This document shows, one piece after another, positions 15,501 to 17,221 of a DNA stretch of 64,000 nt. Every line of letters begins with the position of its first letter. Position 1 is the stretch's first letter. Below the pieces are notes generated by a model that was given only the letters and a program-made list of their open reading frames with translations, did not search any database and was not told the DNA's origin. The DNA is from Verrucomicrobiaceae bacterium (GTDB lineage Bacteria; Verrucomicrobiota; Verrucomicrobiia; Verrucomicrobiales; Verrucomicrobiaceae), in assembly GCA_016713035.1 (NCBI GenBank), contig JADJPW010000004.1, positions 467,578 to 531,577 on the forward strand, in the 5' to 3' direction. Both the position numbers and the translations under genes were made by a program.

Positions 15501-15899
15501 TCGGCCCCGCGTCCGCCACAGCATCATAGCGAGAGTCAGTGCCGCGCCGCAGGAGTCAGCGATGAGGTCGTGCATCGTCTCCCGCACATCCTGCTGGATG
15601 CGTGTGCCACGGAAGACATCCGAGGCCAGCTCCGCGAATTCCCAAAACACCCCGATGGTCAGCGCCAAGGCGAAGACGAAAAGCACCCGCCCCACACGCG
15701 TCAGCGTCCCGATCCAGGGCTGAAAGGACTCCACCCCATGCCAGCATAGATACGCTGCGGCCAGCCCACCGGAAAAATGCATCCAAAAATCCAAATCACG
15801 CCGCCAGGGCGTGCGCAGCACGATTTGATGCACCACCAGCACGAGTGCGGGAGCCCACGCGGCGCGGCGAATGAGCTCGAAAAGCGCGGACTTCATCAC
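15495..15899 (-). CDS. Small membrane protein (VanZ/DUF2238-like)
   Basis: Hydrophobic helices; MHFSGG, GVFWEFAE and DLIAD.CGA motifs. Confidence 0.6.
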   Translation of the reverse strand: MMKSALFELIRRAAWAPALVLVVHQIVLRTPWRRDLDFWMHFSGGLAAAYLCWHGVESFQPWIGTLTRVGRVLFVFALALTIGVFWEFAELASDVFRGTRIQQDVRETMHDLIADSCGAALTLAMMLWRTRGRS

Positions 15900-16435
15900 C
15901 AGTTCACTTTGACGGATTGCTCGCGACCATTGCGATCATGGTACTTCACATGGCCGTGCTTCACTCCGTATTCATGGACGCATTTGGTCACCTTCACATC
16001 GTAGCAGCAGTATTCGGCGATGAGGTCCATCTTGCCCTGCTGCCACCAGCGAATGGCATCGAGCCCGTCCGCCGTCTTTCCCATGCCGAGGGATGCTGCG
16101 GCCACGGCCTCCAGCTTCAGCCGGTGGCCGAGGGCTTTTTCGAGGTCGATGAGCAAATCGAGGCTGTTGAGCTGATCGCGGAAATCAAAAAGGCACTGAC
16201 CCAGCAGCACCTCATAATCGAAACCCACATGATTAAAGCCCACCACCAGATCCGCGCGGCGTAGTTGCTCCACGAGATCTGCGGACTCATCCTGCGTGTA
16301 AATGCGGTATTCCTCTGCCTGCGTGCTGTAGGTGCAGGCGACGGAGATGCCCATCTTGTGCTTATTACCCCAGCCACCCACGTCACCAGCGGTCAGGCGT
16401 GTTTCCAAGTCAAAATAGACGATGTCACCTGCCAT
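15896..16435 (-). CDS. RNase H-like domain protein (YprB/RNase_H_2 type)
   Basis: YFDLET, VVGFNHVGFD and YCCYDV acidic motifs of DEDD/RNase H-like folds. Confidence 0.8.
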   Translation of the reverse strand: MAGDIVYFDLETRLTAGDVGGWGNKHKMGISVACTYSTQAEEYRIYTQDESADLVEQLRRADLVVGFNHVGFDYEVLLGQCLFDFRDQLNSLDLLIDLEKALGHRLKLEAVAAASLGMGKTADGLDAIRWWQQGKMDLIAEYCCYDVKVTKCVHEYGVKHGHVKYHDRNGREQSVKVNW

Positions 16436-16477: not shown

Positions 16478-17050
16478 TTAGCCGATGCGGTACACGATGC
16501 GTGCTTTGTTCACGTCGTAGGGGGACATTTCCAGTTTCACCGCGTCACCGATGACTAGACGGATGAATTTCTTCCGCATCTTACCAGAGATGTGGGCGAG
16601 CACTTCATGCCCAGTGCGCAGCTTCACACGGAACATCGTCCCGGCGAGTACGGAGGACACCACGCCTTCGAGTTCGATGGCTTCTTCCTTTTGCTTGATC
16701 TCTGGCTCTGGCTCAGGCCGGCGCTGTGAGCCACCGCCGCCGCCACGGTTCTGACCGCCACCACGATGGGGTGTATTGCCGATACCGCCACTGCGCTGCA
16801 TCGGGCTACCACCACGGGCACCCGGTGCACCGATGCCAGGACCAGCCGCTCCGCTACCTGTGCCACCGACGATGCCACGAGGCGGGCCACTGCTACTCAC
16901 GATGCCGCGTGGGGGGCCACTGCCACCGACGATACCGCGAGGCGGGCCGCTGCTGCCAACAATGCCGCGGGGAGGGCCGCTGCTACGATGCGGCGGGCCG
17001 CTACGGGAGGATTGGTTCGATGGGCCGCGATTCGGGGGTCGGTTCTGCAT
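16478..17050 (-). CDS. infA: Translation initiation factor IF-1 with a long Gly/Pro/Arg/Ser-rich N-terminal extension
   Basis: C-terminal [68 protein letters not shown] is canonical IF-1. The nearest upstream ATGs are at about 16800 and 17050. Confidence 0.9.
16861..17003. repeat. 30-bp tandem repeat (4 copies plus a partial) in infA
   Basis: Units start at 16861, 16891, 16921 and 16951 and encode (S/G)SGPPRGIV(G/S). Confidence 0.9.
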
Positions 17051-17221
17051 GGATGGATACTTAAAAGAGACGATGTTCCGGGCAGGATGTACGCGTAGGC
17101 GTGGATGACAAGGCGGAAAATCACCAAAGCCCAGCCCCAGCAGCAGCCCCTGGAGAGTCAGGATACACGCCCGGACACTTCTTCCTTGCATGGCAGCGAG
17201 TTTTCCGGCATGCGGCGCGGC

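Follow-up and report, generated by a model that had tools for sequence, protein, structure and literature searches.

The window analysed here, a 64,000-nucleotide stretch of contig JADJPW010000004.1 (assembly GCA_016713035.1, positions 467,578 to 531,577) from a Prosthecobacter species of the family Verrucomicrobiaceae, carries on its minus strand the gene infA, which encodes translation initiation factor 1 (IF-1). By every sequence and fold criterion the protein is a genuine bacterial IF-1 and the housekeeping copy of its genome, and its oligonucleotide/oligosaccharide-binding (OB) fold is preceded by a long N-terminal extension, or tail. Comparison with related genomes makes us confident that this tail genuinely exists, that it is translated and selected, and that it is spread through the order Verrucomicrobiales. 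As an explanation of the whole, we somewhat incline to a tailed housekeeping IF-1 translated from the ATG at 17050, in which the order-inherited tail would serve as an RNA-docking arm; taken by itself, the docking mechanism is given a little less than an even chance. The coordinates of the features are collected in Table 1.

The identity of the C-terminal domain is clear. It matches PF01176 with 73.9 bits (cut-off 30.2; 7.9e-21) and TIGR00008 with 90.6 bits (cut-off 61.15), and residues 120-188 align without gaps with residues 2-70 of solved IF-1 chains that are 71-72 residues long. Chains 1AH9, 5LMN and 9FCO align with the OB fold at E-values of 1e-17 to 1e-21. In an AlphaFold2 model built from a 20-sequence alignment, residues 122-190 form a confident five-stranded barrel (strands 125-134, 139-144, 149-154, 170-175 and 182-187, together with a short helix), and the mean predicted local distance difference test (pLDDT) values over the OB fold are 67-89 per 10-residue block. 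The C-terminal tail is missing, and the protein stops at ...IVYRIG, two residues past strand beta5. All 12 solved IF-1 sequences are 71-87 residues long, and the description of a single-domain IF-1 of about 70-75 residues does not fit the 190-residue product of the conserved start. Several relatives (L032, L034, L036-L038, L040, L044, L086-L090 and P0001-P0003) carry one or two extra residues in the loop between strands beta2 and beta3; it reads KLRGNGHEV, RNATGHEV, RNSSGHEV or RGKDHEV in them, compared with KLRTGHEV in the window.

A first-pass annotation of the window had described a canonical IF-1 domain behind a Gly/Pro/Arg/Ser-rich N-terminal stretch with four 10-residue repeats, and this description stands. 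It had also offered two interpretations, a lineage-specific IF-1 with an added RNA-binding or condensate function, or a specialised paralogue. The second is ruled out because the genome carries a single infA: one match is found in the 6.24-Mb, 95.6%-complete assembly, and the gene is matched in 40 of 41 related genomes, nearly always as a single copy. The first is supported as regards lineage specificity, the tail being inherited through Verrucomicrobiales and under selection as a peptide, as described below; the added function would be one of the possibilities weighed further on.

Table 1. Features of infA and its surroundings in the window (all on the minus strand; positions counted from the first letter of the window)
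Feature	Position	Strand	Description
infA coding sequence	16478..17050	-	190 residues plus stop; no other infA in the genome; predicted mass 19.4 kDa, isoelectric point 11.65
IF-1 S1-like OB fold	16481..16690	-	residues 121-190; PF01176 and TIGR00008 above cut-off, PDB alignment, AlphaFold2
N-terminal extension	16691..17050	-	residues 1-120; Gly/Pro/Ser/Arg-rich, predicted disordered
Conserved N-terminal tip, MQNRPPNRG start	17021..17050	-	identical or nearly so in P0001-P0011 and L032-L040; includes the start ATG 17050-17048
Four tandem 30-bp/10-residue units, (S/G)SGPPRGIV(G/S)	16865..16984	-	residues 23-62; Tandem Repeats Finder
Pro/Glu-rich linker, tail to OB fold	16682..16723	-	residues 110-123, net charge -1; P112 invariant, RRPEP...KEE conserved in alignment
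Internal ATG (Met84)	16799..16801	-	start in public annotation (107 residues); not conserved
Promoter-like box CCTTGTCATC-N11-GTACATCCT	17084..17113	-	33-63 nt 5' of the ATG; upstream alignment of 9 species
RNase H-like / 3'-5' (PolB-like) exonuclease gene	15896..16435	-	PF13482, 1.4e-08; 42 nt downstream of infA

The length of the extension depends on the start codon, for which the frame offers ATG 17191, ATG 17050, a GTG near 16900 and ATG 16801; the stop is the TAA at 16480-16478. The longest infA frame covers 16478-17191 and would give 237 residues, the IF-1 domain being the last 70. A start at ATG 17191 was rejected: the 47 additional residues are hydrophobic and unconserved, and the promoter-like box falls inside them, so that a conserved box would lie within the 237-residue frame. 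Sequence comparison supports ATG 17050 as the real start of a 190-residue product. The frame from this ATG begins MQNRPPNRG, as do the closest relatives (P0001-P0003), and the same tip is found in eight further species (L032-L040); it resembles the MPPPRR-type tips that occur throughout Verrucomicrobiales. The nearer ATG that the first-pass annotation had placed at about 16800 does exist, with the exact position 16801-16799, and is the start used in a public entry (P0004) of 107 residues that is 100% identical to the window protein. In P0001-P0003 the position of this Met84 is occupied by Ser, which rules it out as a conserved start. From Met84 to the OB fold the frame lacks ATG, GTG and TTG codons, in agreement with the earlier remark that none stands just ahead of the IF-1 domain, and no conserved start codon adjoins the fold. 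The next GTG codons lie within strand beta1, at the EGVV position, where initiation would truncate the strand; a start beside the OB fold was rejected on these grounds. Plus-strand shadow open reading frames at 16726-17108 are disfavoured by the codon-position pattern, which fits the minus frame.

No Shine-Dalgarno sequence was found ahead of ATG 17050. Loss of the anti-Shine-Dalgarno is ruled out, as the 16S rRNA of this organism has the 3' end ...GGATCACCTCCTTTCT with the canonical CCUCC tail. In an alignment of the region upstream of infA from nine species, CCTTGTCATC-N11-GTACATCCT is the sole strongly conserved block, and it reads TTGTCA, a 16-nt spacer and CATCCT. The block is probably the infA promoter. 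We term it only promoter-like because a simple sigma-70 scan with the E. coli consensus calls nothing in the infA upstream region.

The extension is strongly biased in composition and charge. Residues 1-120 include 34 Gly, 20 Pro, 16 Ser and 14 Arg, and residues 1-119 hold a single Lys, three acidic residues (Asp and Glu together) and no Phe, Tyr or Trp. The net charge across residues 1-109 is +12. Compared with RGG/RG-class sequences, there are 8 RG and 3 RGG motifs in the 119 residues, together with 4 PRG motifs, but the dominant unit is GPPRG and Pro accounts for 17%. For residues 1-121, AlphaFold2 predicts no secondary structure and gives pLDDT values under 50. The array identified by Tandem Repeats Finder spans 16861-16986, with 4.2 copies of a 30-bp unit. 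Pairwise comparison of the four units shows 37 nucleotide differences, of which 31 affect the third codon position and none the second; counted by codon, 30 differences are synonymous and 6 non-synonymous. At the domain junction, the KQKEE of the linker matches the canonical IF-1 N-terminus (AKED).

Purifying selection acts beyond the repeats. Codon alignments with eight relatives give ratios of non-synonymous to synonymous substitution rates (dN/dS) of 0.06-0.13 for the extension, compared with 0.03-0.06 for the OB fold, values to be read with dS near saturation in several pairs and, in this low-complexity region, for the alignable columns only. Among more than 100 loci, no length difference breaks the reading frame. 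The third-position bias noted in the first-pass annotation is thus correct and quantitatively strong, and the selection on the peptide that it was taken to suggest is supported by this bias together with the dN/dS of about 0.1.

The extension is not a peculiarity of one species. Almost all Verrucomicrobiales among the 40 related genomes and 79 further loci compared have it, on a single infA. Across about 85 distinct IF-1 sequences of the order, the N-terminal tails are 27-173 residues long with a median of 46, the start having been chosen heuristically for some relatives, and their median composition is Pro 25%, Gly 17%, Arg 15%, Ser 10%, Lys 1.6% and Asp plus Glu 4%, with a net charge of +8. 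The survey of tail and repeat number that the first-pass annotation proposed hence gives a nearly order-wide N-terminal tail in which the type and number of repeats vary quickly. The middle of the tail evolves fast, and the repeat type differs by lineage: the 10-residue unit, present in four copies in the window, occurs in 1, 3, 4 or 5 copies among near relatives, GGPPRPGG reaches about 12 copies in Brevifollis gellanilyticus, and other lineages use GPNRGPSRG, GGNSAGGQRTGA, GPARTGTGAG or GGTGNLANGGPGRSS. Several relatives have RGRGRG runs. The ends are steadier than the middle. The tip conforms to M-[SP]-x-P-P-[NR]-[RK]-[GS], and the junction to R-R/P-P-E-P...acidic...K-x-K-E-E, which continues into the canonical IF-1 N-terminus.

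A survey of 150 genomes of the phylum places the origin of the tail. Other classes have a plain IF-1 of 72 residues, with open frames of about 72-86 residues. Two reduced-genome lineages and one other family likewise retain a plain IF-1, and there infA adjoins rpmJ. The other orders of the class have no N-terminal extension, and most of them have instead a basic C-terminal tail of 14-21 residues, for example ...RLRNAAVQRNAPKRSFGPRRR and ...KESTPPPPPMMRRRY; it is present in 20 of 20 loci of one set (L141-L160) and in two more (L165 and L166). The hexapeptide RSFGPR occurs in eight of these C-terminal tails and RSYGP[KR] in three more, and the identical RSFGPR is found in the N-terminal tails of four Verrucomicrobiales loci (L092, L095, L099 and L100). 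Prosthecobacter tails retain a related R-[FY]-x-PPPRPPEP. In Verrucomicrobiales the N-terminal tail stands in place of the C-terminal one, which has disappeared, with exceptions: one family (L002) is tailless, and in family f4 two genera have C-terminal tails of 21 and 64 residues (L009 and L010) and a third genus (L027) has an N-terminal tail of 173 residues. The tail is clearly a secondary acquisition within one bacterial class, as judged from this distribution. The basic tail is thus a class-level property of IF-1 whose position switched from the C- to the N-terminus, through either transfer or convergence on one motif. Placement at either end of the protein is evidently compatible with its function, as is a six-fold range of tail length.

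Akkermansia provides a separate view of the extension. In five genomes (L003 and L161-L164), an open frame of about 100 codons rich in Gly, Pro, Arg, Ser and Asn precedes the OB fold, and in none of the five does it contain an ATG, GTG or TTG. The frame starts six codons past a stop, at a conserved AACAAGGAG-N6-ATC AGC CCG AAT CCA AGA. Two species differ in the extension by 17 synonymous changes and 1 non-synonymous change, and dN/dS across pairs is 0.02-0.28. Other Akkermansia species have an ATG at the homologous codon (e.g., MSSPNSF... and MPSHNGRP...), and L005, from another family, shows the same AAGGAG-ATC arrangement. The simplest reading of these sequences is that infA in Akkermansia initiates at AUC behind a strong Shine-Dalgarno sequence (AAGGAG). 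Public records list IF-1 of A. muciniphila with 64, 66 or 52 residues (e.g., ACD05058.1 of strain ATCC BAA-835), beginning in or at the edge of strand beta1 and without the canonical N-terminus. The truncated annotation and the AUC start would explain how the tail could be overlooked in the member of the order that has been studied most.

In E. coli, infC, which encodes IF-3, is autoregulated through its AUU start codon. By analogy, an AUC start could give infA of Akkermansia an infC-like autoregulation that couples IF-1 synthesis to the fidelity of initiation. The likeness lies in the apparent use of a non-canonical start codon, which in Akkermansia stands behind AAGGAG; the codon there is AUC and not AUU, and infA in the window uses ATG without a Shine-Dalgarno sequence.

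IF-1 binds in the A site between h44 and uS12, where it is shallowly anchored and its occupancy fluctuates with the conformation of the 30S subunit (bioRxiv 10.64898/2026.06.26.734871). The window protein consists of a conserved basic tip (MQNRPPNRG), a variable Gly/Pro/Arg/Ser spacer whose length changes by in-frame gain or loss of 30-bp repeats, a conserved RRPEP-acidic linker and an OB fold of the kind that plugs the 30S A site. In the mechanism that we consider, the tail would be a disordered, Arg-rich, polycationic arm that contacts 16S rRNA, mRNA or both near the decoding site, in line with the RNA binding of Arg-rich disordered arms generally, and the extra RNA contact would raise the 30S on-rate or the dwell time of a shallowly anchored factor. 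The tip and the RS[FY]GPR-type motif may be the docking elements and the Gly/Pro-rich repeats a length-tolerant tether. A fuzzy electrostatic tether fits better than a folded domain because either terminus and a six-fold variation in length are tolerated. Two further observations argue for the RNA arm: the charge and composition of the tail are kept while its sequence turns over, and one of the few other RG-rich tails in the genome is found on an RNA-binding protein with an RNA-recognition motif (RRM).

Several observations weigh against the RNA-docking arm. That the tail reaches rRNA or mRNA is an assumption. The excess of Arg over Lys is partly expected at the 59% GC of the genome, and the dN/dS values carry the limits of saturation and alignability given above. 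The clade of the window has lost the aromatic residue of the RS[FY]GPR-type motif, and a single shared docking motif is for this reason not universal. One member of the order (L002) has no tail at all, and two members lack the N-terminal tail or have a C-terminal tail only, which means that the tail is not absolutely required.

Among the alternatives, the one that survives best, itself improbable, is that the tail is a docking or scaffold module for another protein, in which polyproline II-type motifs (GPPRG, GPPRP and PPNRG) would hold IF2, IF3, a ribosomal protein, a helicase or a chaperone. Pro is the commonest tail residue in the median composition, GPPR(G/P) and PPNRG recur in otherwise different repeats, and IF-1 is the anchoring point for IF2 and IF3 (PMC5037330). 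However, the partner is only hypothetical, the strong positive charge and the Arg bias suggest nucleic acid as the ligand, and repeats that differ so greatly between genera would be unusual for a specific peptide-binding interface. Nor does the length of IF-2 co-vary cleanly with the presence of a tail. A related idea, that the tail compensates for a shortened IF-2, was rejected for want of a clean pattern: IF-2 frames are 685-782 residues long in the order, 614-896 in the sister orders and 619-1075 elsewhere.

We give still less weight to a tail that drives condensates or the clustering of initiation components in the manner of RGG sequences, and so tunes the local concentration of IF-1 or its behaviour under stress. 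The predicted disorder, the Gly/Arg-rich composition with its RG and RGG motifs, the RGRGRG runs in relatives and the presence in the same genome of an RRM protein with a classical RGG/YGG tail would all agree with it. Against this, aromatic stickers are almost absent, there being none in residues 1-119, many tails are just about 30-45 residues long, IF-1 is stoichiometric on the 30S subunit, and nothing in the sequence data specifically demands condensation.

To the same small degree, the tail might be a nearly neutral, low-complexity appendage with no specific function, produced by the gain of an upstream start and by replication slippage. Such an origin would account for the six-fold variation in length, for repeat families that differ between genera, for copy numbers of 1, 3, 4 or 5 among near-identical relatives and for the absence of a tail in L002. 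It agrees poorly with the purifying selection on the peptide, with the retention of the tail throughout the order in all sampled genera but a few, with the conserved tip and linker, with a composition and positive charge that outlast the turnover of sequence, and with the basic tail that the sister orders retain at the opposite terminus.

The least probable account, in which Met84, or a non-canonical codon adjoining the OB fold, is the start of the mature factor and the upstream frame is a leader, an element resembling an upstream open reading frame or an accident of high GC, can appeal to the choice of Met84 by gene callers (P0004), to the missing Shine-Dalgarno sequence before ATG 17050 and to the long open frames of a GC-rich genome, but it is hard to reconcile with a Ser in place of Met84 in the closest relatives and no canonical start codon from there to the fold, with third-position bias and a dN/dS of about 0.1 that span the whole tail including residues 1-83, with in-frame indels among more than 100 loci, with a conserved Met-tip at ATG 17050 and a promoter-like box just upstream, and with the less GC-rich Akkermansia, which keeps about 100 open codons at 17 synonymous versus 1 non-synonymous change.

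Returning to the RNA-docking arm, an extended version of it may be considered, although we think it unlikely. The basic tail would be a portable ribosome-docking module, a cationic tether that bears the tip and the RS[FY]GPR-type motif; in the ancestor of Verrucomicrobiales it would have left the C-terminus of IF-1 for the N-terminus, e.g., by tandem duplication, fusion and loss. It would have an eIF1A-like role in the handling of mRNA and start codons, and infA of Akkermansia would in addition be feedback-controlled through its AUC, as infC is through AUU.

The composition of the tail is not a general feature of the genome. RG/PG-rich tails are scarce, with about five plausible coding segments in 6.2 Mb and the remainder being poly-G tracts, and a genome-wide compositional artefact is thereby ruled out. 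The RRM protein mentioned above lies outside the window (contig C4, reverse-complement offset 218748, minus strand); it has 156 residues, a PF00076 match at 1.7e-20 and a (RGGYGGGGGGG)n C-terminal tail. A second protein outside the window, of 562 residues (C4, forward offset 146857, plus strand), has an RGG/RRD-rich N-terminal region and no Pfam match. Long tracts on other contigs (C2 near 179.9 kb and 851.7 kb, and C12 near 103 kb) read as poly-Gly in all three forward frames. They represent G-homopolymer-rich DNA, which could be genuine or an artefact of two-colour sequencing or assembly.

The gene neighbourhood differs from the usual secY-adk-map-infA-rpmJ arrangement, as the first-pass annotation had pointed out. 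The rpmJ-rpsM-rpsK-rpsD cluster is on another contig (C1, minus strand, reverse-complement offset about 845.0-846.8 kb) and does not include infA; the rpsK (S11) frame in this cluster seems to start with an Ala/Pro-rich N-terminal extension (MADETTPAIPAAPEAAAAPAAAPAAPVAAPGADK...). In none of 31 order members does rpmJ follow infA, compared with 8 of 30 genomes elsewhere in the phylum, a count in which the regular expression used for L36 may miss variants. The separation from the ribosomal cluster is order-wide and unremarkable in itself, because infA of E. coli is likewise isolated. The exonuclease gene downstream of infA is found in 20 of 20 same-genus loci, in 68 of 79 further Verrucomicrobiaceae loci and in none of the other families, and it is possibly co-transcribed with infA. 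Upstream, on the opposite strand, lies a gene for a leucine-rich-repeat protein with a signal peptide. In several Prosthecobacter species (L006, L008, L024, L031, L076, L083, L094 and others), the in-frame translation upstream of infA reads STGLEPATTRITIW.STIELRPP, which suggests that a tRNA gene immediately precedes infA in those species; the window has none at the corresponding place.

Among the universal translation factors, IF-1 is considered the smallest and the least variable, and in bacteria no more than an OB fold. Here, a disordered cationic arm makes the sole IF-1 of an entire order two to three times larger; the order includes the tubulin-bearing Prosthecobacter as well as Akkermansia muciniphila, a gut bacterium that is in culture and has been studied intensively. 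We found no description in the literature of a tailed IF-1 in Verrucomicrobia or Akkermansia; the possibility raised at the outset, that the extension is already documented as universal and dispensable, found no paper behind it. To our knowledge, the role of tails on A-site factors has so far been studied only for eukaryotic eIF1A. With a miniature arm at the opposite end in the sister orders, the class offers a natural experiment on such tails that can be tested in cultured organisms. Gene callers routinely remove the tail: public annotation truncates IF-1 to 107 residues in the window and to 52-66 residues in Akkermansia, as a result of which proteomic databases cannot detect the tail, and the probable AUC start of Akkermansia escapes standard gene callers.

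Compared with canonical bacterial IF-1 (E. coli, 72 residues, PDB code 1AH9; T. thermophilus on the 30S subunit, PDB codes 1HR0 and 5LMN-5LMV), which binds the A site between h44, the 530 loop and uS12 and stimulates IF2 and IF3, the window protein has the same OB fold and is likewise encoded by a single copy. It differs in its 119 additional N-terminal residues, in ending at ...YRIG without an RSRGRA-type C-terminus, and in the location of its gene outside map-infA-rpmJ. With eIF1A and aIF1A, in which unstructured tails stand on both sides of the OB fold, it shares the fold and the A-site role of the factor; its basic N-terminal tail, predicted to be disordered, recalls theirs in a way that we take as an analogy of design only. 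The corresponding models remain below their cut-offs (TIGR00523, 29.2 bits versus 102.9; NF003082, 24.4 bits versus 108), the helical subdomain and the acidic C-terminal tail are absent, and there is no sequence relation between the tails, the one in the window being 4-5 times longer than that of eIF1A, Gly/Pro-rich and built from repeats. IF-2 is another initiation factor with an N-terminal extension that varies between lineages: its N-terminal variable region (N1 of the alpha-isoform) is flexible, unresolved in electron cryo-microscopy and thought to aid initial recruitment to the 30S subunit (bioRxiv 10.64898/2026.06.26.734871). This concerns a different factor, and the IF-2 region is long established; no counterpart on IF-1 turned up in the literature that could be searched. 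The basic extensions of ribosomal proteins are similar in being disordered, Arg/Lys-rich and lineage-variable filaments that bind rRNA electrostatically (reviewed in PMC11764897). Those tails, however, sit on stably assembled subunits, whereas the tail of IF-1 sits on a transient factor that leaves before elongation.

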